In this document: positions 25,622 to 42,987 of the stretch, piece by piece
Position numbering within the stretch: position 1 is the stretch's first letter
How the letters are laid out: each line of letters starts with the position of its first letter
From: Bacteroidota bacterium
GTDB taxonomy: Bacteria > Bacteroidota > Ignavibacteria > UBA10030 > UBA8401
Direction: 5' to 3'
DNA length: 44,049 nucleotides
Assembly: GCA_028873075.1 (NCBI GenBank)
Contig: JAGWND010000003.1
Coordinates: 1 to 44,049, forward strand
Notes under the pieces: generated by a model
Database searches by the model: none
Told to the model about the DNA's origin: nothing
Seen by the model: the letters and a program-made list of their open reading frames with translations, nothing else
Position numbers and translations under genes: made by a program

Positions 25622-26038
25622 GTGTACAAAACAATCCTTGTAACGTTAGACGGCACGCCGACCGACAGGGCAATCATCGAACATGTGAAGCAGCTCGCAG
25701 CGCTGGCGAAGAGCCGCGTTGTGCTGTTACATGTTGCCGATGGCTGGGCAGCCCGCACATTTGGCTCGGATGCTGTTGGTCCGGAAGTTGCGGAGGACAT
25801 TGCTTATCTTGAAAAAGTGAAGTCGGAATTGACCGCAAATGGCATTCCAGCCGAAGCGGAACTTGCATACGGCGAACCGGCCGCAGAAATTGTGAAGTGG
25901 GTGAAAAAAGGGAATTGCGATCTTGTCGCGATGAGCACGCACGGCCACCGCTTTGTCGCCGATTTGTTTCTCGGTGCAACGGCAACGCGCGTGCGGCACG
26001 GGGTGGATGTTCCAGTGTTGCTTCTTAAAGCGAAGTAA
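25622..26038 (+). CDS. Universal stress protein (UspA family)
   Basis: GTG start after AAGGA; YKTILV.LDG, GEPA.EI, DLVAMSTHG, G....V......PVLL. Confidence 0.9.
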   Translation: MYKTILVTLDGTPTDRAIIEHVKQLAALAKSRVVLLHVADGWAARTFGSDAVGPEVAEDIAYLEKVKSELTANGIPAEAELAYGEPAAEIVKWVKKGNCDLVAMSTHGHRFVADLFLGATATRVRHGVDVPVLLLKAK

Positions 26039-26057
26039 TATCGGAGGTGGAAGAAAT

Positions 26058-26949: not shown

Positions 26950-28623
26950 TCAATACACGTTGTAACGAATACTGAATACCACATCGTACTTTCCTGCATA
27001 CGCTGGTTCAGCAAGATAATCAAATGGATTGTTGATGAAATCGGGCGTTGTGGGTTTTATGTCTGTTGAAAAACGTGTTCGCAGCACATGAAAATCTACA
27101 AATAAATCACGCAGCGGCTGATAACTCCCGACAATTCCAAACGATTGCTGTTTAGTGACCGGTCCGTAAAATAACGGAGGTTCGTTTCTTGAATATTGAT
27201 ATTTCGTTGAATCTTTCCCTCCTTTGCGAAGCGATTCAAATTGCAGACCGACTTCAAGATTGTACATCGGACGATAGGAAATCGCAGCGGAAAATAAATC
27301 CGCATTTTGACCGATCCAATTTCCTAAATTCACGCCATGATTTTGATATGTGTCTTCAGGAAAATTATGATTATAGACCCACGGATTAATGCGGGTGTAT
27401 TCGACGTTTATTCTCGTATCGTGATATACTACATCGTAGGCATTTCCGCCGAACGTAAAGCCGACCTGATTATGGTTTTCGGTCGGGCTGAATATCTTTT
27501 CGGGTCGTAATTCATCAACATACCATGCGAGATACCAACTGTAATTCTTGATGACAGAAACTTTAAAGCTGCCAAAAAATGCCGAGTTGTCGTCATCATC
27601 CATATAATGCTCTGCGGCTTTGAAAAACATCACGGGAATGAGATACAGCAATTCAGGATTTCTGTTCCCGTAAATTTCCGATTCGCCGAGCGCAATGTTC
27701 ACGCCGTTCCAGGGCGTGAACTCGAGCATTTGCGCCGCAATGTATTTGGGCACATAAATGCTCCTTATACTTTTTGTTCCTAGAGCAGAAGCATTGTACG
27801 AGCGCGACGAGTCTAATATTCCTGAAAAAAGCCAGCCGTGAATATAGGTGAACTCTATATCTTTGCTCAGCCTGGCACGTAATTTAATTTGTGGGAATGC
27901 CGGTGCTTTGGTGGAAAGAATAAGATTGCCGTTTTCACCTGCACCCCAGACGTCGTTCATTTGTTCGAGAGAGAGCGTAACGAATCCCAAATCAATATTC
28001 AATTGCGCGTTGAAGGTATCGTAATCGTACGACGTTGCGGATGTTGAGTTTGAAATTACCGCCGCTTGTAGAGGAGAAAGAGGGCGCAACACCGCCTGAT
28101 TTTGCCCCAGAGAAGCGACATATGAACCGCCGTCGTGGTTATCGTGATAGTAAAAATATACGCCAAGAGATTTTCCGAAATATCCGTACGAAAAGAATCC
28201 ATTCTGCCAATTGTGAAGAACGTTTCCGTCCGCCATGTGATCGTTTGATGCGCCGCCGATAAGATCAACAACAAAATTTGATGGCTCGCTTTGGTAATGG
28301 TACAGATGCCAGCGCTCTTCGGGTAGCTTATCGTATTTCAGGTTTTTCAATTCTTCAAAAAATTCTTCTTTATAAAACCTCAATTCGTCACGCTCAATAC
28401 TAGTCATTTGTGCATCAGTGCTGTCGAGCGTTATAAGAAATTTTGCAATCGCTTCGCGGCTCAGTGGTTTCACGGCGTCGCGGTAGTCGGTGATGAATTG
28501 TTTTGCCGCCATTTTGTCAAGAAAATTATAGACAGGATGGGTTGCGGGTAAATAAACGGATTGAGCGGTGAGCGATGAAAAGACGAACAAACACGCTGTG
28601 GAGAAAAATACGATTTTGTTCAT
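26950..28623 (-). CDS. Capsule assembly Wzi-family outer-membrane beta-barrel
   Basis: Signal peptide; WG.G..G.LILS..AP.FPQI, EYTR..PWVY.H and G.WIG.NAD motifs; terminal aromatic residue. Confidence 0.7.
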   Translation of the reverse strand: MNKIVFFSTACLFVFSSLTAQSVYLPATHPVYNFLDKMAAKQFITDYRDAVKPLSREAIAKFLITLDSTDAQMTSIERDELRFYKEEFFEELKNLKYDKLPEERWHLYHYQSEPSNFVVDLIGGASNDHMADGNVLHNWQNGFFSYGYFGKSLGVYFYYHDNHDGGSYVASLGQNQAVLRPLSPLQAAVISNSTSATSYDYDTFNAQLNIDLGFVTLSLEQMNDVWGAGENGNLILSTKAPAFPQIKLRARLSKDIEFTYIHGWLFSGILDSSRSYNASALGTKSIRSIYVPKYIAAQMLEFTPWNGVNIALGESEIYGNRNPELLYLIPVMFFKAAEHYMDDDDNSAFFGSFKVSVIKNYSWYLAWYVDELRPEKIFSPTENHNQVGFTFGGNAYDVVYHDTRINVEYTRINPWVYNHNFPEDTYQNHGVNLGNWIGQNADLFSAAISYRPMYNLEVGLQFESLRKGGKDSTKYQYSRNEPPLFYGPVTKQQSFGIVGSYQPLRDLFVDFHVLRTRFSTDIKPTTPDFINNPFDYLAEPAYAGKYDVVFSIRYNVY

Positions 28624-28677
28624 CAAGGGTTTCCTTTTTTGAAGATGTGAATATGTACACAACAAAGCATACATACG

Positions 28678-28917: not shown

Positions 28918-30414
28918 TCAATTTTTTGGGACATCTTCTCTGTTCCACCAGCCGCCGCCAAGCGCAAAGAATAACGCCGCTGTGTCGGCATACCGGTTCG
29001 CTCGCGCCTGCACAAGGCTGATCACCGCGTCTTGATATGTTTGTTCAGCGTTCAACAATGCGAGATAGTTTGTGTATCCCGCTTGCCATTGTTTCCTTGC
29101 TAAGTCGAGGGTCATTTCGGCAGCATTGTTAGCGTCAGCCGACGCCTTCAGCGTCGCGGCATCTTGCTCGAGAGCTTGAAGTACATCGGCAACATTTCGG
29201 AACGCATTGAGAACAGTGCTGCGGTATTGTTCTGCAGCTTGTGTGTATGCCGCTTTCGCCGCACGCTCTTGGTGCAGTAACTTTCCTCCTTCAAAAATCG
29301 GTTGCGTTGCGTTCGCAGCCATGTCCCAGATCCCCGTGCCACCTTTAAATAGAGTGGCAGGATTGAGCGCCATGCTTCCGATATCAGCAGTCAGAGTAAT
29401 AAGCGGCAGCCGGTTGGCTTCAGCAATTCCGATTTGTGCGCTTGCCGCGTGTAAATTTTCTTCCGCTTGCAAAATGTCGGGACGCCGTTCCACTAACTTT
29501 GAGGGAATGCTCTCAGGAAGTTCTTGCGGAAGCTGTAAGCTTGAAAGTGAAAACGTTTCAGACAAATCCTGGTTCGGAAAATTTCCGGACAGCATTGCGA
29601 GAAGATTGCGCTGCTGAGCGAGCTGTTTTTCCAGCGGTGGAAGCGTGGCGGTAATCTGAGCGAGCTGGGATTCCTGCTCGGCAACTTCGAGCCGGCCGAC
29701 ATACCCTTTCTCGAATTGCTTGTGCAGGATTTCAACCATGTCGCTATTGATGGTGATGAGTTGCCGCGTCGCATCAATCTGCGCGCGCAGCGATGCTTCC
29801 TGAATCGCCGCCGCAGCGACATTTGCGCTTACTGTAATGTGTGCTGCGATAAGAGCGAATCGGATTTGTTCTGCCTGCGCTTTGAATAGTTCAGCGGTTC
29901 GACGATATAGACCAAATACATCCGGTACGTACGAGACGCTCACTTGCGGTGTGAAAAGACTGAAATACACATCGCCTGAATTAGGCGTGGGTGAAATTTC
30001 TGACGCTGTTTTCGATCTGCTTGCTGAAAAATTTCCTGCCGCACTTGGATACAATGCACTGCGTTGCGCGAGAAAATTTTCCTGCGCAGCGGTTAAAGCG
30101 GCTTGAGCAGCTTTAAGATCGGGATTGTTTTTCAGCGAAAGCTCTATTAAAGCATTAAGCGGTTTCGATTGGAACAGTGCCCACCATTCTCCGGAAATAT
30201 CACTGTCTTCTATAAAACGTTGAGCACTCCCGCCGGAGAGATTCGCTGTGGAGTCGGTGGTCGAAAGAGGTTTTGTTGTATAGCCAGCAGTGCTGTCCGG
30301 AGGCGAAGGTTTTACAAAATCGGGACCGACAGTGCAGCCGGCGGTAAACAGCAAGAGTGTTGTAATAACCGAAACCCAATCTGATTTTTTCTGAGATAAA
30401 ATCATACAAATCAT
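28918..30414 (-). CDS. RND efflux outer-membrane factor, NodT/TolC-family lipoprotein
   Basis: AGCTVGPDF lipobox, WW..F....LN.LI, RRPDI..AE, LF.ALGGGW. Confidence 0.93.
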   Translation of the reverse strand: MICMILSQKKSDWVSVITTLLLFTAGCTVGPDFVKPSPPDSTAGYTTKPLSTTDSTANLSGGSAQRFIEDSDISGEWWALFQSKPLNALIELSLKNNPDLKAAQAALTAAQENFLAQRSALYPSAAGNFSASRSKTASEISPTPNSGDVYFSLFTPQVSVSYVPDVFGLYRRTAELFKAQAEQIRFALIAAHITVSANVAAAAIQEASLRAQIDATRQLITINSDMVEILHKQFEKGYVGRLEVAEQESQLAQITATLPPLEKQLAQQRNLLAMLSGNFPNQDLSETFSLSSLQLPQELPESIPSKLVERRPDILQAEENLHAASAQIGIAEANRLPLITLTADIGSMALNPATLFKGGTGIWDMAANATQPIFEGGKLLHQERAAKAAYTQAAEQYRSTVLNAFRNVADVLQALEQDAATLKASADANNAAEMTLDLARKQWQAGYTNYLALLNAEQTYQDAVISLVQARANRYADTAALFFALGGGWWNREDVPKN

Positions 30415-30417
30415 TCC

Positions 30418-33400
30418 TTATACACTTTGTTTTATTTCCGCTTTAGTTACTTGATTTTTCTTGCGATCCAGAACAATCATTTTCAATGCGGGCACGACGA
30501 TGAGCAGCATAAGCGGACCAACTAACATACCGCCAACGATGACCGTTGCCAGAGGACGCTGCACTTGACTTCCAATTCCTGTGGAAATTGCCGAAGGCAG
30601 CAAACCAAGGCAAGCAGAGAGGCTTATCATAAGTATCGAGCGCATGCGAGTAGACGCGGCGTAAAACATCGCATTCATCGGTGCATCGCCGCGGAGCCGT
30701 GCGTGGTTGAAATACGTCATCAGTAGAATTCCATTCATAACGGAAACGCCGAAGAGCGAAATAAAGCCGATCGCCGCGGAAATACTGAAATTAAGTCCAG
30801 CAATATAAAGCGCTAATACGCCGCCGGCAATCGCAAACGGAATTCCTGAAAGAACCAACAAACACTCGCGCAATGAATTGAACATCGCGTAGAGAATGCC
30901 GAGAATAATGACAAGCGTAATCGGTACGATAATCGCCAGACGTTTTTGTGCAGCCTGAAGCTGTCCGAATTCTCCAGCCCACACAAGACGATAGCCGCTC
31001 GGGAGCTTCACGTTTTTTGCAATGCGCTCCTGCGCTTCTGCAACAGTGCTTCCAAGATCGCGTCCGCGCACGCTGAACTTTATCGGAATGAAACGCTCGG
31101 TGCTTTCATGATAGATCCATGAGGCTCCGTTATCAAAAGTGATCGTTGCCAATTCGCTCAACGGTATGTAGGCGCTTGCACCGCTTCGTGTTTGGTAGGC
31201 AACTTTGATGTTCGATATTTTCTCAACGTTGTCCCGGTATTCCTGCGGATAGCGGACAGCGACGTCAAACTGGCGGTCGTTCTCGAAAATTGTTGTTGCC
31301 GTCACTCCGCCCACTGCTGCCTGGATGATGGAATTCACGTCTCCGACGTTCAATCCGTAGCGTGCAGCTTTTGCTCTGTCCACCTTGATGTTAAGATTCG
31401 GCTGACCAAGGATCGGAAAAATCCCGAGATCGGCAACTCCCGGCACCTGTGCCATCTCATTGCGAACTTGTTCAGCCAATACTGTCAGCGTTTTTAGATT
31501 TGGTCCGATAATCTTGACAGAATTCGCGCCTTTGACGCCGGAAATCCCTTCCTGAATGTTGTCCTGAATGTATTGCGAAAAAGTAAAATTGACTCCCGGC
31601 AATTCCCGTTGGAAGTCTGCGTTAATTTGCTCAGTCAATTTTTCTTTTGTCATGCCTTTAGGCCACTGACTCAGCGGTTTGAGCGGCGCGAACAATTCAA
31701 CATTTGAAAACGGCGAAGCATCGCTGCCGTCATCGGGTCGTCCGTGCTGAGATGATACGGTGATGACTTCGGGGTATTTCATGAGTATCAGCCGCATTTT
31801 TCTTGCTGCTGCTTCACCATCCTGAAGTGAAAGCGTCATCGGCATGGACGCACGAATCCAAAAATTACCTTCTTCAAGGGCAGGAAGAAATTCACTTCCG
31901 AGGCGAGCTGCTAAAAATCCTGCGAGAGCGATGAAGAGAATTCCGGCGATGAGCATCGCTCTTCGTTTTGCAAGCGCAAACCGCAGTACCGGATTATAGA
32001 GACGGTGCAAAAACCGGACAACGATTGTCTCTGTTTCTTTCACATTCTCTGGAAGAAGAAAGGAAGAAAGAACGGGTGTAGCGGTGAATGTTGCAATCAA
32101 CGCGCCGGCAAGCGCGTACGCATACGTTCGCGCCATCGGTCCGAAGATGGCTCCTTCGACTCCTTGCATCGTGAAGAGCGGAACAAAGGCGGCAACGGTG
32201 ATGAGTGCCGAGAAGAGAACAGGATTGCCGACTTGTATAGCGCTGATCAGGATTTCTTTTAACCGCGTTGTCCAAGTTTGGTGCACTGAAGAGTGCAGCG
32301 CGTTTGTCGGATCGGGTCCCCAAAATCCGTCGGCGAGTTGACGAAGCAAACTTTCCCGTTCCTCCGGCGTTTTCTGAAAATTTCTGAAAATATTTTCGAT
32401 GAGAATAACCGATGCGTCCACAATAATACCGAGGTCAACAGCGCCTACCGAAAGGAGATTGGCGCTTTCGCCTCGTATCACAAGAATGATAACGGCGAAA
32501 AAAAGTGCAAACGGAATAGTCAAGCCGACAATAATTGCGCTTCGGAGATCGCCGAGAAAAATCCATTGAATGAAAAAAATCAGCAGCGTTCCGAAAATCA
32601 GGTTATGCAGAACAGTGCTTGTCGTAACCGATATTAACCAGCCACGATCATAAAACGGAACGAGCTTTACTCCGGGCGGCAGGCTGCCATCATGGTTCAT
32701 TTTGTTAATTTCGGCTTCAACCTTCGGCAGCAAGTCATGTGCACGCTCATCGCGGCTCATCACCACAATTCCCGCGACTCCGTCGTCTTCCTTATCGTGT
32801 CCCCAAATGCCGAGTCTCGGTACATATCCTACAGATACTGCAGCAACATCCTTTACCAGAATCGGAACTCCGTTCGATTGAGTGAGAACAACATTTTCAA
32901 TGTCATCGGTGTGGTAGCCCTGAGTCAAATCATCGTTTCCTCCGTCGTCCATTAATCCGACGCCGCGAATGTTGATGGACTGCTGACCGATTCGAATTTC
33001 CCGTCCACCGACGTTGATGTTCGCGTTATTCAACGCCGTGAGCACTTGAGGCACAGAAAGATTGTAGGCTTGAAGCTTGTGCGGATCAACATCAACCTCG
33101 AATTGTTTTGTCGGACCGCCCCACGAGTTGACTTGAACAATACCGGGAATAGTCAACAGGCGCCGCTTCACGATCCATTCCTGCACCGTCCGAAGATTTT
33201 CCAATCCAAAATGTTTCGGACCGATAACTTCGTAGCGAAGAATTTCTCCGGTTGTGCTGTTCTGTTGGATTGTTGGAACCAAACCTCCCGGCAGATTAAT
33301 ATTTTGCTGTATTGCGACTGCTGTTTGACTGTAAGCAAAATGAAAATCTACGCCGTACTTGAAAACAACCCGAACAAACGACAAACCGTAGAACGATGTT

Positions 33401-33651
33401 GAGCGAATGACATCAATTCCGGGAACAGTGTACAGCCCGATTTCAATCGGTCGCGTGTAGTAACGCTCCATTTCTTCAGCGGAAAGCCCCGGCGCTTGAG
33501 CGGTGACTTCAAGAATAACCGGCGTCGGATTAGGATATGCCTCGATGTTGAGCTGCTGGTATGCGGCGAATCCGGCGCCGAGGAACAGCAGCAAACAGAC
33601 GAGAACGATGGCGCGATGACTTAAACAAAACGCGATGATGGAATTCAGCAT
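30418..33651 (-). CDS. czcA: CzcA/CusA-family heavy-metal RND efflux transporter
   Basis: IEAYP, SANLLSVGAVDLGIIVD, EFLP.LEEG, GFISLFGVSVMNG, GSQVQRPLATVIVGG; 1077 aa. Confidence 0.92.
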   Translation of the reverse strand: MLNSIIAFCLSHRAIVLVCLLLFLGAGFAAYQQLNIEAYPNPTPVILEVTAQAPGLSAEEMERYYTRPIEIGLYTVPGIDVIRSTSFYGLSFVRVVFKYGVDFHFAYSQTAVAIQQNINLPGGLVPTIQQNSTTGEILRYEVIGPKHFGLENLRTVQEWIVKRRLLTIPGIVQVNSWGGPTKQFEVDVDPHKLQAYNLSVPQVLTALNNANINVGGREIRIGQQSINIRGVGLMDDGGNDDLTQGYHTDDIENVVLTQSNGVPILVKDVAAVSVGYVPRLGIWGHDKEDDGVAGIVVMSRDERAHDLLPKVEAEINKMNHDGSLPPGVKLVPFYDRGWLISVTTSTVLHNLIFGTLLIFFIQWIFLGDLRSAIIVGLTIPFALFFAVIILVIRGESANLLSVGAVDLGIIVDASVILIENIFRNFQKTPEERESLLRQLADGFWGPDPTNALHSSVHQTWTTRLKEILISAIQVGNPVLFSALITVAAFVPLFTMQGVEGAIFGPMARTYAYALAGALIATFTATPVLSSFLLPENVKETETIVVRFLHRLYNPVLRFALAKRRAMLIAGILFIALAGFLAARLGSEFLPALEEGNFWIRASMPMTLSLQDGEAAARKMRLILMKYPEVITVSSQHGRPDDGSDASPFSNVELFAPLKPLSQWPKGMTKEKLTEQINADFQRELPGVNFTFSQYIQDNIQEGISGVKGANSVKIIGPNLKTLTVLAEQVRNEMAQVPGVADLGIFPILGQPNLNIKVDRAKAARYGLNVGDVNSIIQAAVGGVTATTIFENDRQFDVAVRYPQEYRDNVEKISNIKVAYQTRSGASAYIPLSELATITFDNGASWIYHESTERFIPIKFSVRGRDLGSTVAEAQERIAKNVKLPSGYRLVWAGEFGQLQAAQKRLAIIVPITLVIILGILYAMFNSLRECLLVLSGIPFAIAGGVLALYIAGLNFSISAAIGFISLFGVSVMNGILLMTYFNHARLRGDAPMNAMFYAASTRMRSILMISLSACLGLLPSAISTGIGSQVQRPLATVIVGGMLVGPLMLLIVVPALKMIVLDRKKNQVTKAEIKQSV

Positions 33652-33665
33652 AATAATTCTCCTCC

Positions 33666-34658
33666 TTAATCTTCCGGCGGAGCTTGCAGCATGTTGCTGA
33701 GAAATACGCCCCCTCTGCTCACCATCTGTTCTCCGGGTCTAAGTCCATCGAGGATTTGGTATTCGTCGTCTCGCTGCAATCCTACTGTCACCTTTCTCTG
33801 GACGAAGCGGCAGCGGTCTGTCGTTACCCAGACGGTTAACGTACCGTCGCCTTCACGCACGATACCCGTAACAGGAATTGTTACAGCTTTTTTCTTGTCG
33901 CCGAAAAAATGTGCTGTTCCGAACATTCCGGCGCGGAGTTTGTTCTCAAGATTCGAAAGAATGATTCGGACTTTCGCGGTTCTCGTTGTTGGATCAATGA
34001 CATCGCCGATGGAGGAGACCTTTCCAATGAAGCGTTCTGCGGGATATGCGTTACACTCAATTTCAACTTTTGAGTTCGTTTTGATATTGGTGAGCTGTCC
34101 TTCTGGGACTTCGGCGGCAACGATCACCGTTCCTGCAGCCGTTTGCTCGAGCACCTTCGGATCAATTCCAGCAGCACGCAACTGGCTTTCTTTCTGTGCC
34201 ATATCTGCCTGCGATTGGTTGTAGTCTGTTTGTGCGTCGAGCAATTCTTTTTCTGCGATGGCTTTGTCTTTTGTCAAATCTTCCAAACGGCGGTAATTTT
34301 TTGACGAGCGCTCGACGGCAGAAACGCTTTTTACAAAATCGGCATACAATTGCGTTAAGTCCGGCGTTTCAAAAAGGTATACGTTGCCGTTTCCGAATTC
34401 GGAGCGCGCGATGCTCACAGCAAAATGCGCCGGAGCCGTAAACTCGGTTTGAATAGTTTCTTCGTGTACCGTATCAATGGTGAATTGTTGAAGCTGAAGC
34501 GAATTCGGTGAGAAAACAATTTCGTTTTCATCGTTCAGCACCTGCGGCGCTGAGATGTTTCGTCCCGAAGCCGCCCGGGCTTCATCTGAGCGATTGCATG
34601 ACTGTAATGCTAATCCATCCAAAATTATCAGCATGGGAATTAAAATTCTCGTGATCAT
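33666..34658 (-). CDS. RND efflux periplasmic adaptor (CzcB-like)
   Basis: AEVPE, IDP.TRT.KVR, LRAGMF, GL.PGE; lipoprotein-like N-terminus; GAGGA SD. Confidence 0.88.
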   Translation of the reverse strand: MITRILIPMLIILDGLALQSCNRSDEARAASGRNISAPQVLNDENEIVFSPNSLQLQQFTIDTVHEETIQTEFTAPAHFAVSIARSEFGNGNVYLFETPDLTQLYADFVKSVSAVERSSKNYRRLEDLTKDKAIAEKELLDAQTDYNQSQADMAQKESQLRAAGIDPKVLEQTAAGTVIVAAEVPEGQLTNIKTNSKVEIECNAYPAERFIGKVSSIGDVIDPTTRTAKVRIILSNLENKLRAGMFGTAHFFGDKKKAVTIPVTGIVREGDGTLTVWVTTDRCRFVQRKVTVGLQRDDEYQILDGLRPGEQMVSRGGVFLSNMLQAPPED

Positions 34659-34876
34659 ATCTTTTCCTCGATAAAGCCTAATACATTCTTTTTAATACAA
34701 CTGAAGAATCAAACTTGTATGTGAAACCGTTTCAGCGGTTTTTCACTATGCAAGCGTTAATGCGGCATTTTTATTCATTCGAACGGAGAATGGATAAAAA
34801 TAACGAGCGCTTGTACCGGCACAAAACAACCGGCGCAACCAAGTCTAAAAAAGGAAATGGAAACTGGAGAAAAAGA

Positions 34877-35284
34877 TTAGATGAGAAATTCGCAGTGGAG
34901 CAGGTACAGCGGTAACGCGGAAATATGAGAAATACAATGAACGTTCTGCTCAACAGGGAGGATGCTTATACTCTGATCTACTAGTGCCGGATCTGCTGCA
35001 AGGGAGGGGCTGTCCAAATCTACAATTTGTATTGTGTGCCGGCGTGCAGCGTGCAGCGGAGTGAGAGATAGCTTCAGCTGAATAAGTGATTTTGCATTTT
35101 GAAGCTCCTCGCTGTTTATCGCCGCGTTGCCCGATTCCTCTGAAATGCCGACTTCCTCGGGGTGGCTTACACTGGTTCCCGGCAAAACATCGTCGAGATT
35201 TGCGAAATCAGCGAAGAACGTGGCGATAAAGAACCACGTTACCAGTGTCAACAAATTCGATTTTTTAAAGCAGAGGGTCATCAT
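34877..35284 (-). CDS. Small leader-like membrane/exported protein heading the czcBAC-type operon
   Basis: 135-aa ORF with N-terminal hydrophobic helix, scattered His, and C-terminus HCISHISALPLYLLHCEFLI; strong promoter immediately upstream. Confidence 0.65.
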   Translation of the reverse strand: MMTLCFKKSNLLTLVTWFFIATFFADFANLDDVLPGTSVSHPEEVGISEESGNAAINSEELQNAKSLIQLKLSLTPLHAARRHTIQIVDLDSPSLAADPALVDQSISILPVEQNVHCISHISALPLYLLHCEFLI

Positions 35285-35302
35285 ATTTGAGCATCAAACG
35301 TA

Positions 35303-35333
35303 CAAATATACGCTGCCGCTGCGTGGTTGTCAA
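35303..35333 (-). promoter_or_regulatory. Promoter for the leader ORF + czcBAC
   Basis: Minus strand TTGACA (35333..35328), 17 bp, TATATT (35310..35305); also fits TAnnTTTG. Confidence 0.75.
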
Positions 35334-35402
35334 GGTTTGTTTGCTGAAGAAAAAGCGCTGATCACTTCACAGCATATACATGCATTGCAAATTAGTCGAA
35401 TG

Positions 35403-36902
35403 CTATTGCACAACAAACATTTTCTTTTCCCTGTCCCACAGTAAACGCGCACGATTTTTTCCCCACCACGTTTGGACTTTTGCAACATCCTTCACAGAAA
35501 ATGAAATTGGAATATGGCTTTGCAGATGATCGTGTGCGTCATCGGCGAAAATTCCGCCGTCCTGAATAAGGCGAATCATCGCCGGAATTGCGTCGGCATC
35601 TCCCAGCTCAAGTGCGGTTTCCAAAAACTGGATTTGCATCTCGGGGTCGTCCTCCGACTTCGACGCCTCGACAAGTTTTTTCGCGGAAACACCGTCGCCG
35701 AATGTCTTCACTGCAACAAGCACGCTTTGTTGAACGTCGTCTGATTTGTCGTTGAGAAGCGGAACGATCTGAGCTTCCGCTGAAGCGACGCGCGATTTCG
35801 TTAACAGGTCCACTGCGGCTTTACGCACTTCGGAATCTTCATCGTGAAGAGCTTTTGTAACAAGCGGAATCCATTCTTGTTGCTGTGCGGGAAACGAAGC
35901 AAGCATGTGAATACCCGATTGTCTTTCTGTGCTCGCTTGACTCTGAAGCAAATGCAATGCGTGTTCGAGAGGATCTTCTGCAGGTTTGCGGAAGAAAAAA
36001 ACACCCGCAATAAAAATTGCAACGACAGCAGCAGCCGACGCGAGATTTCTAACTGCAATAGAAACACGCTCCGCCGTTTTGATGTAGCGGTACATTCCGC
36101 TTATCAGTAAACCGGCTGCGAGCAAAACAACAACCAAGGGGCTTGTCGGAAGTCCGGTGTTCCACGAAAGCTTCACGCCGATGAAGCTGATGATCGCACT
36201 TCCGATCCAGCCGATTGCGAGCCGCGTGCTGAGTTTATCGGAAAGCATCATTGCTCCGACGGACGGAATGACGAGGTAGCTGAAGACGAGAAACACCCCC
36301 GCAATTGCCACTGAACTTGTGATGACGAATCCGAACGACATATAAAAGAGAAAATCCCATAAGCGGACATTGATGCCGCCCGCTTCCGCTCTTGCAGGAT
36401 CGAACGAGATTGCCATGAACTTTTTCCGGAAGATGAAATGGAACAACCCGACAATCGAATAAATGATTGCTGTTTTGATAACGACGTGGCCCTGTACCCA
36501 GAGCAGATCGCCTTTAATGATGTGATCGAGTTCCTGCGGACCGAGCGCGCTTTTTGAAAGGATCAGAATTGTTGCCGCGAACGTTACGGCATAGACAATG
36601 CCAATGATCGCTTCGTGCGGTACTTTTTCGCTCTTCATGCGTGTGGCGGAAAAGATGAACGCGCCGAAAATCGTGAATGCAAGCGAGTAAAGATACAATG
36701 CTGTAATATCCGTGCCAACTTCGTAACCGAGCAGCACGCCGATGACTGTTCCTAATGCGGCAATTTGCGCCAACGCAAGATCAACGAAAATGACTTTTCG
36801 TGCGACAACGTGAACACCTAAATAGACATGAATGCCGGTGAGCACGAGGCACGCCAGCAGCGGCCAGATCATTGTTGAGGGCAAATAGAAAAGTTGTTCC
36901 AT
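35403..36902 (-). CDS. ZnuB/MntB-type metal ABC permease fused to C-terminal HEAT-like repeats
   Basis: FVDLALAQIAALG, EAIIGIVY, SFDPARAEAGG, AGVFLVFSYLVIP; then LHDEDSEVRKAAVDLL and LLNDKSDDVQQ. Confidence 0.88.
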   Translation of the reverse strand: MEQLFYLPSTMIWPLLACLVLTGIHVYLGVHVVARKVIFVDLALAQIAALGTVIGVLLGYEVGTDITALYLYSLAFTIFGAFIFSATRMKSEKVPHEAIIGIVYAVTFAATILILSKSALGPQELDHIIKGDLLWVQGHVVIKTAIIYSIVGLFHFIFRKKFMAISFDPARAEAGGINVRLWDFLFYMSFGFVITSSVAIAGVFLVFSYLVIPSVGAMMLSDKLSTRLAIGWIGSAIISFIGVKLSWNTGLPTSPLVVVLLAAGLLISGMYRYIKTAERVSIAVRNLASAAAVVAIFIAGVFFFRKPAEDPLEHALHLLQSQASTERQSGIHMLASFPAQQQEWIPLVTKALHDEDSEVRKAAVDLLTKSRVASAEAQIVPLLNDKSDDVQQSVLVAVKTFGDGVSAKKLVEASKSEDDPEMQIQFLETALELGDADAIPAMIRLIQDGGIFADDAHDHLQSHIPISFSVKDVAKVQTWWGKNRARLLWDREKKMFVVQ

Positions 36903-36922
36903 AAAGTTTCCTTCGAGTGATC

Positions 36923-37292
36923 GTCATTTTGAGGTACTTATCCACGCCTTTGGCGTGGAAACTTCTTCTGCAATGACATTCGTTGTCATTCGTAGTCGTG
37001 GTTCGACTTCGCTCACCACGACAGCCGCCCTGAGCGAAGTCGAAGGGCGGAAAAAACCTCTTTCTTCTCGATGTCATTAGTAGGAGCGAAGCGACGAAGA
37101 ATCCAGCTTTTTGCCTCAAGGTAAAGTATGGATTCTTCGCTCCGCTGCTTATGACATTGGAGTCGTTCTGGGTCCCGCTGTTTTTTCGCTGATGCTCAGC
37201 ATGACAAACTCGGCCTAATTCGAAAGGCTGATCGGATGTCAATGCATGCGAAGATTCTTGACAAAGTCGAGATACATACCTCAGAATGACAA
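36923..37292. repeat. Cluster of REP-like palindromes (GTCAT...ATGAC and TTCGACTTCGCTCA types)
   Basis: TCCACGCC-TTT-GGCGTGGA (36941..36959); TTCGACTTCGCTCA (37002..37015) with TGAGCGAAGTCGAA (37031..37044); ATGTCAT..CGAAGAATCC..GGATTCTTCG..ATGACAT (37071..37157); half copies CTCAGCATGAC and CTCAGAATGAC. Confidence 0.8.
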
Positions 37293-37314
37293 ATCAGAAG
37301 ATTCTTGTTTTCTG

Positions 37315-38346
37315 TTACGATGCTGCTTTCAATATTTTTTCAAGCAAATAGGTGATGAGGTTTTCGTACGTGTTCGCCTCCGGACTGGAATACACATCAA
37401 TGTACGTCACGATTACTTTTGCTCCGGTTTTACTCGCAACATAGTCCGCCGCATCGGTGGAATAAAAATTATCGTTTAAAATGACTTTCACGCCGTCTCG
37501 TTTTACAAGGTCAACAACTTCGTCACGATGCTTCGCTGGCGGCGGAATGCCCGGCTTTTCTTCAAGCTCCCCGGCAATTTTTACTCCGAAGCGGTCGGCG
37601 AAATAGATGTACGTTTTGTGATAGGAAATGATTTCCTTCCCTTGCAGCGGCTCTGCCATTTTCATCCATCCGCCTAACTTTGCATCGAGATGCCGCGAAG
37701 CAAGCCACGAATACAGCTCGCCGTCTTTTGTTTTGCGGGTGAGAATATCGCCCCCTTTTTTGCCGAGCAGGTCGAGCAATTCGCTGCCGTACATTTTTTC
37801 GTCGAGACGGTGCTTGAAGGCATCGAGTCGTTGCTGGTAATAGCCCGAATTTGTCGGGTCAATTTGTTGAAGCCGTGCAGCAATATTTTCTGCTACGATT
37901 CTCACGTTCAGCGGATCGAGCCAGATGTGTGGATTGCCCTGCGGATGGATATCGCCCCACGCGCGCGAAACTTCTGTCGGCAATTCTCTTACCGGCACAT
38001 TGATCGTCGCGATGAGATGTCCGGGATTTCCGACTCCGATATTCGGATTACCCGATGCGTCAATAACATTTTTTGCCCAGAGGTCGAGCGACAATCCGTT
38101 TTCGATGAACAAATCGGCGTTTGTTGTTACTTCATTCATGCGCGGCGTCGGCGTAACATAGTGCGGGTCCTGTTTTGGATTGGCAAGAGCCGTGACCGTT
38201 ACTTTATCCCCGCCGACCTGTTCCGTCACGTATTTGAGATAATTCAGCGTGACAACAACGTTTAATTTTTTTTGTGCCGCCGCTGAAACATGCGCTATTG
38301 AAAACGCCAGAAATACGGCAAGTAGTGCTGCGAAAAGTTTTTTCAT
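37315..38346 (-). CDS. ZnuA/TroA-family (cluster A-I) metal-binding protein
   Basis: Signal peptide; QDPHY, NGL.LD.W, GDIHPQGNPHIWLDP, YHK...YFA.RFG, EEKPGIPP...H. Confidence 0.92.
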   Translation of the reverse strand: MKKLFAALLAVFLAFSIAHVSAAAQKKLNVVVTLNYLKYVTEQVGGDKVTVTALANPKQDPHYVTPTPRMNEVTTNADLFIENGLSLDLWAKNVIDASGNPNIGVGNPGHLIATINVPVRELPTEVSRAWGDIHPQGNPHIWLDPLNVRIVAENIAARLQQIDPTNSGYYQQRLDAFKHRLDEKMYGSELLDLLGKKGGDILTRKTKDGELYSWLASRHLDAKLGGWMKMAEPLQGKEIISYHKTYIYFADRFGVKIAGELEEKPGIPPPAKHRDEVVDLVKRDGVKVILNDNFYSTDAADYVASKTGAKVIVTYIDVYSSPEANTYENLITYLLEKILKAAS

Positions 38347-38400
38347 GATATTCTCCAAATTCTCAAGTTTTCCATTGACCATTTTTCGTCTTTCATGTTT

Positions 38401-39756
38401 TTATTTGTTCACCCAATATGGCTCTACCGGATGAGAGCCGAAGACGAAGTTTGCTCCAAAAAGTATTGAATTGGTGTTGTTCAGATTCGGCGCCAACGCA
38501 TCGCTCGTTCTGTGCTCGAAGCCGAGCCGGAAGCGGAGAAATTCCGTTGTGTAATAACTGACGAAAACAGAAATTTCCCGCGTCACTAATTGAGCATTTG
38601 ACGGTTCTTGTACCCAATCGTAACGAAGCCCCGCATACGTCCAGTATGAAAATTGATACTGAGCAAAGGTGTACCAACCGTACGGCTTGCGTGTTACCGT
38701 TCCTCCGGCAGGATTTGGTGTTGTATGATCGCCGAAGAAAATTTCTCCGCCGCCGACAAACGAATGATTTTCTCTTTGCTCGCTTGGCGCCCACTTATAC
38801 ATGAGGTTGCCTCCGACGAGATTCGTTGTTGTGATGCCGCTTTCGGTATAGCCGCTGACGCCGAGAACGAGCAGGTGCTCGTTGTTCCAATCCTGCGACA
38901 AGGTTAAATGCCCGAGATACGCGGTCTGTCCTCCCGGGTCGCCTGCGGATATTCCAAGCTCACTGCCGCGAAGAACGTCGGCGTTCATCTCGAATGTCGC
39001 AGAAGGAACCGGCGACGGGAGGAAGAATTGAAAATCGGCACCGACCGGATTGAAACCGGAATCAAAAAAGTTGCCGTGTTCTCCCCCTAGGTATTTTGAA
39101 ATCACAAGCGGGTATGTTGTCCACGGCAAATCGTGCAGGTGCGTGATGTTGCTGATGCCGATGGGAGCGAGATAGCGCCCGATTTTCACTTTCAACCCGA
39201 GCGGCGCGGTTTCGAGAATCGGCAGGCGTTTGATGAGGCCGTACGCTTCTTCCGCTTCAACACTGAACCCTTGCTGTGCATCGCTGTTGAGTGAAATGAT
39301 CGCGACGGCTTCAGCGTAGGGATCGACCGCAGAGCCTAATTCCATTTCTACCGCGCGGAGAAACGGGCGGTTGGAAATAACACTGCCGCCCGGCGCATCG
39401 TACACTGTGTCGTTGTCATGCCGCGCGGCAAAATTGATGAATGCCGTCATGCGCGGATTCAGAACGATCGGTGCCGATGCGCGAGACACGGCATCAACCT
39501 TGTTTTCCAGCCTCTGCATTCGTTGATCAATATTGTCTTCAAGCGCATCAAGGTCGTCTTCCGTTACCTGAGTCAACGATGTAGTTGTGCTGTCTGTTTT
39601 CAGGCTTTGAATCTCTTTGCGCAGTTCGTTAACCTCGTTTCGCAGCCGTTGAATGCTTGTCTCGCTGGTATCAGCCTGAGAATCCTTTGCGGATTGTTGT
39701 GCCATTATTGTGCCTGCGCATACAAACATTCCAACGGCAATCAAAAAATATTTCAT
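38401..39756 (-). CDS. Outer-membrane porin-like protein with N-terminal coiled coil, associated with metal uptake
   Basis: Signal peptide, coiled coil, E......VDPY, EEAY, N..HLHD.P, G.RYD, TEFLRFRL, FVFGSHP; heads the SBP-permease genes. Confidence 0.75.
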   Translation of the reverse strand: MKYFLIAVGMFVCAGTIMAQQSAKDSQADTSETSIQRLRNEVNELRKEIQSLKTDSTTTSLTQVTEDDLDALEDNIDQRMQRLENKVDAVSRASAPIVLNPRMTAFINFAARHDNDTVYDAPGGSVISNRPFLRAVEMELGSAVDPYAEAVAIISLNSDAQQGFSVEAEEAYGLIKRLPILETAPLGLKVKIGRYLAPIGISNITHLHDLPWTTYPLVISKYLGGEHGNFFDSGFNPVGADFQFFLPSPVPSATFEMNADVLRGSELGISAGDPGGQTAYLGHLTLSQDWNNEHLLVLGVSGYTESGITTTNLVGGNLMYKWAPSEQRENHSFVGGGEIFFGDHTTPNPAGGTVTRKPYGWYTFAQYQFSYWTYAGLRYDWVQEPSNAQLVTREISVFVSYYTTEFLRFRLGFEHRTSDALAPNLNNTNSILFGANFVFGSHPVEPYWVNK

Positions 39757-39786
39757 GATTGCCCTCTGAGTAGTTGAACGATTTGT

Positions 39787-39814
39787 CGGTGATCCCGCTA
39801 TTAACAGGACACCG
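39787..39814 (-). promoter_or_regulatory. Stem-loop between the RGPP leader and the porin gene
   Basis: Minus strand CGGTGTCCTGTT-AAT-AGCGGGATCACCG: 12 pairs including two G-U and one bulge; no U-tract. Confidence 0.55.
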
Positions 39815-39828
39815 TTGAGGAAAATAGA

Positions 39829-40188
39829 TTAGGCAGTCACGAAAGGAGGGCCGCGATGGAAATACGGCGATAAAACTTCAAAGGAAACTGCAGGAACAAA
39901 AGTGATATAGGGAAGGTAAAATGCTTTCTCTTCAGGCTGAACTGTGAACACGGCCGTCGGCATGAATGCTCTGCCGAAAATCCCTGAGCATACGGCACAT
40001 GTTTCGGTATGCGAGAGGTCAATATGGTGACAATGAGCAGCATCCGCGTGTGTTGAGACAGTCTCATATCCCGTGCCTATAACAAATATTGCTTCATAGT
40101 CGCGGTGAATGGGCACAAGAATAACCATACCCACGACGTAAAACGCGAGCACCCACGACGAAAGCTTTTTATTGATACGGGAAATCAT
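39829..40188 (-). CDS. DUF2946/CruR-like leader protein (TM, His cluster, CxxC, C-terminal RGPP)
   Basis: 119 aa from MISRINKK; hydrophobic helix ending in H; THADAAHCHHIDLSHTETCAVC; ends YFHRGPPFVTA; 72 bp upstream of the porin ATG. Confidence 0.8.
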   Translation of the reverse strand: MISRINKKLSSWVLAFYVVGMVILVPIHRDYEAIFVIGTGYETVSTHADAAHCHHIDLSHTETCAVCSGIFGRAFMPTAVFTVQPEEKAFYLPYITFVPAVSFEVLSPYFHRGPPFVTA

Positions 40189-40307
40189 TGATGCATAAAA
40201 GATACAACATTCTAAACCAAATACAAGGAAAAAGGTTCCGCTTTGCGACATGATTTTTTATTGCACGAAGAAACCTTCAAAGTAAAAAGAAGGTTATATC
40301 ATCAGGC

Positions 40308-40730
40308 ATGAATGTTATTGCTAAATACTTCGGTGTCGGGCTGGCGGTTGTGCTGTTATCAGCAAACGGATTTTTTACAGCCTTCGCTCCGGACTTGCGC
40401 CATCACAACAGTGTAAAGAAGGCTTCAATGCAGATGTGCAGTTGCTATTCCGGCGATGAGGCAATGACGTGTTCATGCTGTTGCGCGAAGCATCGCTCAC
40501 ATACTGCAGCGTGCACTTCGTGTGAATTTTCTTCTGCGCCATGCGCAAATCCTATTGCCGCCGTTTCACCGAATGTTCTTGATCCTGCAGTTCAAACGCA
40601 ATCGAAAGAGCAAGACATTCTGCTTGGTACGAGATCGGAAAAATTTCCGGTGCTCGCTATATTGCTTCTTTCACGGACACAAGACCCGCTTTTCCATCCC
40701 CCGCAATCCTTTTCACACATCTTTTCATAA
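40308..40730 (+). CDS. Cys-rich leader-like protein with C-terminal FHPP, upstream of a TonB-dependent receptor
   Basis: N-terminal hydrophobic segment; 9 Cys in CSC...CSCCC...CTSC...C; ends DPLFHPPQSFSHIFS. Confidence 0.75.
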   Translation: MNVIAKYFGVGLAVVLLSANGFFTAFAPDLRHHNSVKKASMQMCSCYSGDEAMTCSCCCAKHRSHTAACTSCEFSSAPCANPIAAVSPNVLDPAVQTQSKEQDILLGTRSEKFPVLAILLLSRTQDPLFHPPQSFSHIFS

Positions 40731-40759
40731 TACAACTGCTCAACAAAAAATCTGAAGGC

Positions 40760-40792
40760 AATGTCTGACAGCGGTTGTTACTGTCTGACATT
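40760..40792 (+). promoter_or_regulatory. Hairpin or tandem TGTCTGACA palindromes between the leader and the TonB-dependent receptor
   Basis: AATGTC-T-GACAG-CGGTTGTTA-CTGTC-T-GACATT; TGTCTGACA at 40762 and 40782. Confidence 0.55.
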
Positions 40793-40898
40793 CAGCGAAA
40801 ATGAAATAAAGATATCAGCGGCTCGAAAACGCCGTCAGGTATCATTACGTTGAGCAATGATAAATTTTTCTTTGCGGTACTTAACGAAAGAAATCTCT

Positions 40899-42869
40899 AT
40901 GCGTTGGTATGTTATCAGTGCGCTGGTGTGTTTCCTTTTTTCAACGGCGTGGTCGGAAGATTCGCCGCCGGATACATCAGCCAAAGTTGTTCAGCTCCCA
41001 GAGGTAACGATTACTTCCGCTCCTGTCGCTCGCGAATTGCCGGTGAGTTCGGTAGTCGTTTCTCCGGTGGCGATTCAAAGAACCGTTGCGACAGATTCGT
41101 GGGATCTTCTTCGTCAAACTACGGGAATTGAAGTTCATGAACAGGGACAAGGACCCGGCTTCGCATCGGATGCATCCATCCGCGGCTTCAGCTCTGATCA
41201 CTCGACCGACCTCGCGCTTTGGATTGACGGAGTGCCGGTGAACGAGCCGATTAACGGACACGCGGAAGGATACAATGATTTCAGCCTTCTGATGCCGGAA
41301 GCGATCCACTCGCTCAATCTCATCAAAGGACCGACCAGCGCGCTGTACGGCAATTTTTCTATGGCAGGCGTGGTAAATGTTCGGACGCTTGAACGCATGG
41401 ACGGAACGGACATTCGTGTTTCCGGCGGCACGTTCGGCAAGCTGGAAGGATCTGCATTGAGCGGTTTTGATAACGGTAGCAGCAGCGGAGTATTCGGCAT
41501 TCGCGGCATTCAGAATCAGGGTTGGCGGCCGAACAGCCAGTACGATCTTGAACAAGCACATGCTCGGTATTTGCAGAATGTATTTTCCGATGCAACGATT
41601 GATGCCGGGGTGGAATTGTACTCTGCCAATTGGCATTCTCCCGGCTCGCTTACTGCGGCACAGTTCGCTCAACGCCAGTATAATGTTGTCGCGAACTCAA
41701 CTGACGGCGGATACAAACGCCGCGCACAGGAACGAGTGAGTTTGAGATTTTCTCCCGACTCCATCATGTTCTGGCGGACGACTATTTTTGCTACACAGGG
41801 GCGCTGGCAGCTTTTTCTCACAACGCCGCCGGAAGGTGGATTGACAGAAGGCTCCGGAAATCAAACGGAAGAAGAGGACAAGCGTTACGGTCTTGGCGGA
41901 ACAAGCGCGTTGACATGGCAGTTTCCGCAGAGTGAAATTACTGTCGGTGTAGAAGGAAAGCTCGATCATTCGAATTACGAGAACTGGTTTACAACCAATC
42001 GGGAAAGAGATTCAGCGCAGATACTCGTTTCGGCACGGCAGAGTGCCGGAGCGTTCTTTTTTCAATCGGAAGAAAATGTCGGCGATGCAAAGTTCACTCT
42101 CGGCGGACGTTATGATATTCTCAGTGTAGAATCTGTACCGGAAGGTGGCGGAACGTTGAATAATGCCAAGGGAATTTTTTCTCCGAAGCTCGGCGTAATG
42201 TATTCCTTTCCCGAAAACTTTTCCGTCTATGCAAACATCTCGCGCGGATTTCGCTCAACAGATGGTACAATAGAAGATCCATCGCTGCCGTTCATCACCG
42301 CATGGGCATACGAGACAGGAACAAAATTCGATGCAGATGTTGCCAGCGGCAGTGTTGCGCTCTTTCGGATGAATGTGAGCAACGAACAGACATTCGACCC
42401 TGTTACGCTCACTTCAACAAACGGGGGAAAAAGCCGCAGGCAAGGAGTGGAAGTGTCGGCGATGATTCGCTTTACAAATCAGGTTCGTTTCATCACTGAT
42501 GTAACGTTCAACGATGCACGTTATGAAAATTTAATTACGGAAGGTGGGGACACGCTTTCCGGTGCACGCGTGTACAACACGGCAAAATGTGTCGGCGATG
42601 CCGCGCTCGACGTTGTTCCGAACGCTCAGTGGCAGTTCCGTCTCAATTCGGATATTGTCGGTCCCTATAGTCCGTTTGATGAACCGGGAGTAGTGTTGCC
42701 GCCGTACGTTATTTTTTCGATGACAATCGGTACACATATCGGCGATGCATTTCTTCAGTTGGGAATCAAGAATCTTGCGGACAAAGCGTACCCCGAATTG
42801 CGTGCAGGCGGATTTGTCAATCCCGGTCAACCGCGCACGTTGTACGGAACAGCGTCGTATTCGTTTTAG
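40899..42869 (+). CDS. TonB-dependent outer-membrane receptor
   Basis: Signal peptide; TonB-box-like LPEVTIT; plug motifs IRGF, IDGVPVN, IKGP.SALYG...AGVVN; C-terminal NL.DK.Y...PG.PRT....SYSF. Confidence 0.95.
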   Translation: MRWYVISALVCFLFSTAWSEDSPPDTSAKVVQLPEVTITSAPVARELPVSSVVVSPVAIQRTVATDSWDLLRQTTGIEVHEQGQGPGFASDASIRGFSSDHSTDLALWIDGVPVNEPINGHAEGYNDFSLLMPEAIHSLNLIKGPTSALYGNFSMAGVVNVRTLERMDGTDIRVSGGTFGKLEGSALSGFDNGSSSGVFGIRGIQNQGWRPNSQYDLEQAHARYLQNVFSDATIDAGVELYSANWHSPGSLTAAQFAQRQYNVVANSTDGGYKRRAQERVSLRFSPDSIMFWRTTIFATQGRWQLFLTTPPEGGLTEGSGNQTEEEDKRYGLGGTSALTWQFPQSEITVGVEGKLDHSNYENWFTTNRERDSAQILVSARQSAGAFFFQSEENVGDAKFTLGGRYDILSVESVPEGGGTLNNAKGIFSPKLGVMYSFPENFSVYANISRGFRSTDGTIEDPSLPFITAWAYETGTKFDADVASGSVALFRMNVSNEQTFDPVTLTSTNGGKSRRQGVEVSAMIRFTNQVRFITDVTFNDARYENLITEGGDTLSGARVYNTAKCVGDAALDVVPNAQWQFRLNSDIVGPYSPFDEPGVVLPPYVIFSMTIGTHIGDAFLQLGIKNLADKAYPELRAGGFVNPGQPRTLYGTASYSF

Positions 42870-42876
42870 ATTTGAA

Positions 42877-42960
42877 GATTGATTGTTGGATGGCTGGATT
42901 GTTGAAATGACGGAATCGTGTTGAAAAATTCCATTTACCGTTTTCCATATTCCATTTTCC
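42877..42960. repeat. Inverted octamer arrays between convergent genes
   Basis: ttgattg ttggatgg ctggattg ttgaaatg acggaatc ... ttccattt accgttt tccatat tccattt tcc. Confidence 0.55.
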
Positions 42961-42987
42961 TAAAGATTGTGTAGCATCGTTTAGAAA

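Follow-up and report, generated by a model that had tools for sequence, protein, structure and literature searches.

Can small open reading frames (ORFs) at the head of metal-transport units report the supply of metal to the genes behind them while they are still being translated? This question is raised by a 44,049-nucleotide stretch of DNA (contig JAGWND010000003.1, assembly GCA_028873075.1; hereafter the window) from a Bacteroidota bacterium of the class Ignavibacteria, which carries a conserved chromosomal metal-homeostasis cluster. Each of the three transport units of this cluster, a heavy-metal efflux operon, an ABC-type uptake operon and a TonB-dependent receptor gene, is opened by a small, exported, fast-evolving but constrained ORF, termed A, B and C, respectively. 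A first reading of the DNA, made without database searches (the sequence-only reading), had proposed that all three are leader peptides which sense extracytoplasmic metal through their nascent chains during secretion, extending the concept of CruR from Bordetella pertussis to new motifs. The analysis described here favors, at a probability of roughly 0.55, a joint reading in which B is a CruR-type sensor, C is probably analogous to it and A is left open.

The three ORFs are real genes, kept open and in place in relatives more than chance would allow. Their positions at the heads of the three units, as first read, were confirmed together with their sizes: 135 residues for A (34877..35284, minus strand), 119 for B (39829..40188, minus strand) and 140 for C (40308..40730, plus strand). 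The divergent gap of 119 bp that had been described between B and C is likewise found, at 40189..40307, with the start of B taken as 40188. The open frame of B spans 39829..40251 (140 residues); the start at 40188 is better supported, since a same-genus homologue has no upstream methionine and database homologues measure 117–119 residues. Median pairwise ratios of nonsynonymous to synonymous substitution (dN/dS) amount to 0.26 for B (28 pairs), 0.16 for A (7 pairs) and 0.26 for C (19 pairs), so that the amino-acid sequences are under purifying selection. The objection that the frames might be untranslated, which the sequence-only reading had itself raised, is disposed of by these values of 0.16–0.26.

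Intact frames were found for B in 15 of 41 genomes and 10 of 27 genera, and for A and C in five of 41 genomes each; profile searches of 55 genomes from the family recovered A in 13 and C in 14. These relatives are not mutually independent, and such counts overstate the support that they give. In three of these genomes (G044, G048 and G050; G and L are working handles for genomes and loci) the full gene order recurs, with the resistance-nodulation-division (RND) pump, the membrane fusion protein (MFP), A, ZnuB, ZnuA, the outer membrane protein (OMP) and B pointing one way and C and its receptor, back to back with B, pointing the other. Comparative genomics thereby bears out the predicted conservation of the small ORFs upstream of metal-transport genes. 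A, B and C show no detectable relatedness to one another (blastp, best E 1.3), have no paralogues in the genome (tblastn self matches only, next best E at least 0.33) and match no NCBIfam model; each ends in a pyrimidine-rich stretch with more C than G at its 3' end.

ORF B and the DUF2946 family

Judged by its sequence, B is a divergent member of the DUF2946 (CruR/CutF) family and not a new motif. The family is defined by CXXC and RAPP motifs about 45 residues apart, give or take one or two, and both motifs and their spacing are described as functionally important (Roy et al., 2022; PMC9426467). B itself carries the CxxC motif CAVC (residues 64–67, 39988..39999, minus strand), then 44 residues, then RGPP (residues 112–115, 39844..39855, minus strand), a putative arrest point placed four residues before the stop codon. 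All 11 aligned relatives keep the CxxC motif, as do all 18 loci taken from relatives' contigs. All of these 18 loci also carry RGPP or RAPP, four or six residues before the stop, at a distance from CxxC of 44 residues in 16 loci and of 43 in the other two. Invariant throughout the 11 sequences are H28, D30, G38, G40, H47, D49, A50, C53, H55, C64, C67, R112, P114 and P115. Among the RAPP-like motifs tested, RGPP is reported to cause the strongest arrest and to be strongly avoided in proteomes (PMC12992588; EMBO J 2025); in the genome at hand it occurs in two of 9,719 six-frame ORFs. What speaks against the assignment is that PF11162, the Pfam model of DUF2946, scores B at 21.5 bits (E = 4e-4), below its gathering cut-off of 23.7. 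All 11 aligned relatives match the model weakly (E ≤ 0.1, best 4.7e-5), two B homologues bear the NCBI name "DUF2946 family protein," and the sub-threshold score of B is the kind of near miss expected from a divergent branch.

The likeness to CruR (Bp2923) concerns position as well as motifs. Both are the small first gene of a metal-uptake operon and combine an export signal, CxxC, a spacer of about 45 residues and a RAPP-type motif with a C>G stretch at the 3' end. B differs from CruR in a Pfam score just under the cut-off and in an additional invariant cluster, H.D...H.DA..C.H, ahead of CxxC; its intergenic region measures 72 nucleotides instead of 162, and it is followed by porin, ZnuA and ZnuB genes instead of genes for a TonB-dependent receptor and a PepSY_TM protein. 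The lineages differ too, Bacteroidota/Ignavibacteria on the one hand and, in the main text of Roy et al. (PMC9426467), Proteobacteria, Planctomycetes, Firmicutes and Deinococcus on the other. B also fits the class of RAPP/RGPP arrest peptides that includes ApdA, ApdP and SecM-type peptides, and small exported RAPP/RGPP proteins upstream of TonB-dependent receptors and metal genes have been reported across Gram-negative phyla (PMC12992588).

The genes behind B form an apparent uptake operon (35403..39756, minus strand), the term referring here and below to gene order and strand. It comprises a porin-like OMP of 451 residues (38401..39756), a ZnuA-type binding protein (37315..38382; PF01297, 5e-51) and an ABC-3 permease of 499 residues fused to HEAT repeats (35403..36902). 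A B-type gene stands first and on the same strand in 18 of 18 loci, followed either by OMP, ZnuA and ZnuB (eight loci) or by a different TonB receptor with or without a P-type ATPase (ten loci), and the order B-OMP-ZnuA-ZnuB was found in seven of 11 loci of a separate set of relatives. No ABC ATPase gene is present in the B-headed operon of the window or of any relative examined. The permease measures about 278 residues in most relatives, G044 sharing the long HEAT-fused form. Its neighbor, the 451-residue OMP, has no Pfam family; in the ESM Atlas it comes closest to porin O/P-like clusters (feature scores 0.97–0.98), which offers a lead only as to its porin-like identity. The best NCBIfam matches of the ZnuA-type protein are sub-threshold and of zinc and manganese types, and the metal tied to B need not, on these sequence matches, be copper.

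Two of these aspects are absent from the main texts on the family, namely a Znu-type importer that brings its own porin and lacks an ATPase gene, and the Bacteroidota/Ignavibacteria lineage; supplementary lists may hold such members. The main text of PMC12992588 likewise contains neither "zinc" nor "ABC transporter." A second, RGPP-bearing B-type paralogue in relatives lies beside lysA and heads, as CruR does, a TonB-dependent receptor, here of 845 residues, behind which a heavy-metal P-type ATPase is often encoded. The gap behind this lysA-side paralogue is strikingly constant at 85–89 nucleotides (L026, L033, L039, L042-L043, L046-L047, L049, L051-L052, L054-L055). Taken together with reports that the mature DUF2946 proteins under study could not be found (Roy et al., PMC9426467; Ozturk et al., PMC9973294), the motifs of B and their spacing suggest that it is likely to act in cis as an arrest sensor. 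Nascent-chain sensing, as first proposed for all three ORFs, is right in kind for B; the accompanying claim of a new motif does not hold for it.

ORFs C and A

C belongs to a narrow family: a profile built from eight sequences recovered only ten cluster representatives among 1.84 billion. None of its 19 members matches a Pfam family, none matches PF11162 even at E ≤ 10, and a profile comparison of C with B (hhalign) gave a probability of 7%, confined to the N-terminal 17 columns of the hydrophobic segment. The family shares a signal-like helix with a conserved LLSANG, the invariant cysteines C44, C46, C57, C72 and C79, and a conserved S.APC..P....PN.LD block, followed by a linker which is free in sequence and fixed in length. 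At the C-terminus stands [FYL]HPPQ, a candidate arrest motif (HPPQ codons at 40695..40706, plus strand), and then a tail of 5–10 Ser, Phe and Leu residues. H130, P131, P132 and Q133 are invariant in 19 sequences. From the last cysteine to the histidine of HPPQ there are exactly 50 residues, and from LD to the same histidine exactly 37, in 12 of 12 loci, these being the 12 of 15 scanned loci that passed the motif filter (the failures were an in-frame TGA, a VNTLD variant and one unresolved case). From locus to locus the HPP codons vary in their third positions, a synonymous variation that implies a constraint on the peptide.

C combines an export signal, a Cys motif, a fixed spacer, Pro-Pro, a short tail and the first position in its unit. 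A spacer of 44–50 residues approximates the length that places a sensor motif just past the ribosomal tunnel when the Pro-Pro codons are at the peptidyl transferase center. C is unrelated to B and follows the same ruler-like plan with a different Pro-Pro motif, and it is here regarded as a real candidate for a new motif, plausible by its conservation and fixed spacing. The HPPQ of C, which has no Arg, and A, which has no proline motif, would both escape the RAPP-motif survey of PMC12992588. In the literature, no paper was found that links HPPQ with the ribosome, nor one that brings together an arrest peptide, TonB-dependent transport and zinc.

C directly precedes an orthologous receptor in 11 genomes (tblastn). 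The receptor of the window (40857..42869, plus strand) contains the plug (PF07715) and barrel (PF00593) domains. No orthologue of it was found at E ≤ 1e-60 in 250 other genomes of the class, a sample that held no genome of genus g4; as far as sequence searches go, this says only that the C-receptor module is narrow. In a genome of the same genus (G001; L031/L038), compared with 40189..42987 of the window, lysA lies directly next to B and the pair of C and receptor is absent, so that C and its receptor behave as an inserted or lost two-gene cassette. With these features in hand, action of C as an arrest sensor in cis can be put forward only tentatively, somewhat short of even odds.

A presents a different picture. 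Its family (16 sequences) shares an N-terminal helix, the motif ANLDD..PG..V.H, a variable middle that is acidic or His-rich, and DxDSxSL, with an invariant YL..N..LLI 31 residues further on, directly before the stop codon; the last 49 columns of the alignment contain no indels. Cys and His are few, only H41 is invariant, and there is no conserved Cys or His cluster. None of the 16 members matches a Pfam family, PF11162 included. The AlphaFold2 model of A reaches a mean predicted local distance difference test (pLDDT) score of 52, with confidence only for the helix at residues 4–28; the model of C reaches 50.5, with confidence only for the N-terminal helix at residues 3–19.

A opens a heavy-metal RND efflux operon (28918..34658, minus strand) that consists of an MFP gene (33666..34658), a CusA/CzcA-family RND gene (30418..33651; TIGR00914, 874.7 bits against a cut-off of 701) and an outer membrane factor (OMF) gene (28918..30414). 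Wherever the locus offers enough sequence, that is in the window, G005, G015, G022, G048 and G050, A precedes either MFP-RND or OMF-MFP-RND, and in G020 a homologue of A lies upstream of OMF and downstream of an Nramp-Usp fusion of 438 residues (L023). In G022 (genus g4), a 320-residue exported protein with a weak, below-cut-off match to DUF5683 is encoded between A and the efflux genes (L024, 13416..14378), and the order of these genes is OMF-MFP-RND compared with MFP-RND-OMF in the window.

In its position, A resembles CzcI of Cupriavidus metallidurans, which likewise is small and exported and whose gene opens a heavy-metal RND operon of the CzcCBA type; the likeness is one of position and description only. 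CzcI has been counted among the CutF-like DUF2946 proteins that lack a proline motif (Ozturk et al., PMC9973294), a placement that A does not share (0 of 16 members match PF11162). By this analogy, a CzcI-like periplasmic modulator of the pump appears at least as likely as a sensor. Of the three ORFs, A is the weakest candidate for a nascent-chain sensor, nothing specific supporting that role, and it is unlikely to be an arrest sensor acting in cis; the idea that it carries a new CruR-like motif found no support.

Possible coupling to the downstream genes

Two routes from a stalled ribosome to the next gene have been described for the family, Rho-dependent termination for CruR (PMC9426467) and, for CutF of Rhodobacter capsulatus, the opening of a stem in which the ribosome-binding site is masked (PMC9973294). 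CutF, like B, combines an export signal, a Cys motif and a C-terminal proline repeat with a stem masking the next ribosome-binding site; this stem is melted by the stalled ribosome, and the pairing between the 3' end of B and the start of the OMP gene is of the same type. CutF differs from B in its motifs, CxxxC and GPPPR, and in its target, a detoxifying oxidase that is switched on at high copper, whereas the targets of B are uptake genes.

The intergenic region between B and the OMP gene (39757..39828, minus strand) contains an internal hairpin and, upstream of the OMP start, a Shine-Dalgarno (SD)-like GAGGGC (39761..39766), which is complementary to GCCCUC in the Gly-Pro-Pro codons of B. 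The predicted duplex of the RGPP region with this SD, at -13.1 kcal/mol, is the best window in the ORF. In the fold of lowest energy, base pairs on either side of the internal hairpin join the 3' end of B to the start region of the OMP gene; none of 200 shuffled sequences equals its -36.8 kcal/mol (z = -3.04). One compensatory change was observed within the genus, GCCCUC/GAGGGC in the window corresponding to GUCCUC/GAGGAC in the other genome. Across 21 B loci, which are not independent, the arrest zone ranks first among the anti-start windows in five and within the top two in ten, where about 7% and 15% are expected. In an ensemble test, a 27-nucleotide ribosome footprint was blocked and the accessibility of the start region compared with that obtained for a control footprint; the modeled stalled ribosome opens the start region in 11 of 20 loci of the B family and the control in 3 of 20.

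In the case of A, the complementary sequences are CUUUUUCUC (34867..34875), immediately behind the stop codon, and GAGGAAAAG (34661..34669), ahead of the MFP start; both lie within the 218-nucleotide intergenic region (34659..34876, minus strand). A modeled ribosome at the stop codon of A raises the accessibility of the start region from 0.27 to 0.50, the control giving 0.27. The statement of the sequence-only reading that two leaders carry anti-SD sequences is literally true for B and A, and not for C in the window.

The region between C and its receptor measures 168 nucleotides (40731..40898, plus strand), given a receptor start at the conserved MRW at 40899. The arrest zone of C is among the best two anti-start windows in six of seven relatives. 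In relatives, the gap is mostly 74–87 nucleotides long and contains, mid-way, a hairpin with compensatory changes between genomes. The arms of this hairpin resemble an anti-SD and an SD (e.g., CUCCUU...AAGGAG; L056, L057, L059, L060, L062, L083-L085, L089). The spacer in the window is longer, lacks the relatives' hairpin and has two other hairpins. RNAalifold applied to nine C-to-receptor regions gave a weak consensus of -2.85 kcal/mol with one hairpin that shows compensatory changes; the pairing between the stop and start regions is invariant and gives nothing to judge it by.

The genome encodes Rho, and the C>G, pyrimidine-rich 3' ends of the three ORFs would be compatible with the Rho route. 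For the unmasking route, these models provide modest support in the B family and none for C, and the evidence for coupling is mixed.

Within the joint reading, the following mechanism may be proposed for B. Its nascent chain would begin with a hydrophobic segment, followed by a His/Cys cluster of which CxxC is the last element; RGPP would come 44 residues further on, and the ribosome would arrest there. Such an arrest could keep the downstream message productive by opening the pairing of the Pro codons and ORF end with the start of the next gene or, alternatively, by keeping Rho off the C-rich 3' stretch. Metal bound to the part of the chain just out of the tunnel would alter the duration of the arrest, and expression of the porin, ZnuA and ZnuB would thereby track metal supply. 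A direction like that of CruR, in which metal relieves the arrest and expression falls, would make better sense for an uptake operon. C would most likely serve its TonB-dependent receptor in the same way; A would be either a sensor acting at its invariant C-terminus and stop codon or a CzcI-like periplasmic modulator.

Several results count against this reading. The window's own B is predicted to show no unmasking, a ribosome on RGPP changing the accessibility of the OMP start from 0.23 to 0.14, so that CutF-like unmasking is predicted for 11 of 20 B relatives and not for B of the window. In the same ensemble test, C was negative, the start region opening in 0 of 12 loci with the ribosome at HPP and in 0 of 12 with the ribosome at the stop codon, and in the window the complementarity of its arrest zone to the receptor start ranks 7 of 11, which is nothing special. 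The anti-start complementarity near the stop of A is confined to the window and was absent from four relatives. A contains neither a proline motif nor a known arrest motif, and near the C-terminus of C there is no R-[AG]-P-P: HPPQ has no Arg and is not a known arrest motif, Arg is reported to be essential in RAPP-type motifs (PMC12992588), and PPQ is found in both the pausing and the non-pausing sets in Escherichia coli, depending on context (PMC4140641). One C homologue, in G002, precedes a 326-residue exported protein without a Pfam family instead of the receptor. On the contig concerned (L017, 287..1736; contig end at 2176) this protein measures 326–340 residues. The AlphaFold2 models, finally, rest on shallow alignments of 16 sequences for A and 19 for C.

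Competing explanations and implications

The best-surviving alternative holds that the small ORFs, chiefly A and C, encode exported metal-binding accessory proteins acting in trans. A would then be a CzcI-like tuner of the RND pump and C a periplasmic protein, rich in Cys, that carries metal or partners the receptor, their C-termini serving in folding, docking or anchoring. CzcI, the product of the first gene of czcICBA, is indeed reported to reside in the periplasm and to quench the pump (PMC10127602), and the motifs of A (ANLDD and DxDSxSL) are spread along the chain without any of arrest type. Purifying selection spans the whole length of all three proteins and not the C-terminus only; set against this, the signal helix is the only part of A and C that is modeled with confidence (mean pLDDT 52 and 50), and linkers fixed in length and variable in sequence point to a ruler rather than a domain. 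The negative ensemble test for C and the different gene behind its homologue in G002 agree with action in trans, which sits less well with a position strictly first in the unit. For B, the full CruR signature speaks against a role purely in trans, and Roy et al. and Ozturk et al. describe the mature form of such proteins as undetected. On balance, this explanation is rather unlikely as an account of the locus.

Less probable still is the proposal in its original, complete form, that all three ORFs sense extracytoplasmic metal during secretion and make up one post-transcriptional network balancing import and export without a protein regulator. It can point to a common plan of hydrophobic N-terminus, conserved mid-section, fixed-length spacer and invariant C-terminus, to a three-unit locus conserved in four genomes and to the C>G stretch at the 3' end of each ORF. 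A fits this plan without a known arrest motif or a conserved Cys/His cluster, CruR is reported to sense copper independently of its signal peptide (PMC9426467), so that periplasmic sensing is not a given, and nothing was found that indicates cross-talk among the three units. Sensing during secretion and a network of units were inferred. The claim that no regulator gene lies between 24.1 and 42.9 kb is borne out, no regulator family being found among the genes of this interval, which favors a locus without its own regulator; a DtxR/MntR-type repressor abuts it, ending at 24061, just outside this range, and a Fur-family regulator is encoded elsewhere in the genome.

Metal control that is essentially transcriptional, exerted in trans by Fur/Zur-family or neighboring DtxR/MntR-type repressors with the small ORFs as co-transcribed passengers, is very improbable: a Fur-family gene (contig C103, 119 bits), the FeoA-domain DtxR-type repressor (23408..24061) beside Nramp and a 119-bp divergent B/C region that could hold an operator all allow it, but that region shows no clear shared palindrome (by eye only), the CruR signature of B and the exact spacers would be left unexplained, and published DUF2946 systems act post-transcriptionally, alongside any transcriptional control. 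Control by a Fur-family or DtxR-type protein may coexist with the leaders. A known riboswitch is not the explanation, since Rfam gave no match in the whole window at gathering thresholds or in 34400..41000 at E ≤ 1.

The wider setting of the locus may be summarized briefly. The metal-homeostasis cluster fills the right-hand 21 kb of the window, the rest being a housekeeping chromosome stretch with RodA, PBP2 and MutS. The DtxR/MntR-type repressor adjoins Nramp (24067..25452), with a Usp protein and a cation diffusion facilitator exporter (25953..26945) next in line, and a Wzi-like (capsule assembly) OMP of 574 residues (26950..28674, minus strand) lies directly downstream of the efflux OMF on the same strand. 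A scan of 34400..41100 found six promoter-like sites (6.9 expected) and seven terminator-like sites (8.6 expected) and carries no evidential weight; upstream of A (35333..35305) it includes an 11/12 promoter-like match, in a scan without excess over chance expectation. The gap between znuA and znuB (36903..37314) measures 412 nucleotides compared with about 97 in G001. Some 165–190 nucleotides of this gap (roughly 36920..37105, with a hairpin at 36941..36959) belong to a dispersed repeat, which other contigs of the genome carry in at least 20 more copies (70–97% identity) and which has the look of a miniature inverted-repeat transposable element.

The metal-sensing arrest peptides CruR and CutF have reportedly been described only from 2022 on, almost entirely from Proteobacteria and for copper. 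B, standing before a Znu-type ABC importer with its own porin, widens the targets and the range of this family. The boldest version of the argument holds that C (Cys cluster, 50 residues, HPPQ) and A (DxDSxSL, about 31 residues, YL..N..LLI and stop) represent two new classes of metal-responsive arrest or termination peptides, without homology to each other or to DUF2946, which together with B would provide three-channel nascent-chain sensing for efflux, inner-membrane uptake and outer-membrane uptake. This is doubtful; were it true, the CruR/CutF principle would have been invented several times with different arrest chemistries. Should C and A prove to be ordinary periplasmic proteins, the finding would shrink to one more DUF2946 operon. 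C is a cheap and directly testable candidate for a new arrest sequence, and with import and export units side by side, each with its own leader, the locus offers a good model for how uptake and efflux may be balanced post-transcriptionally.

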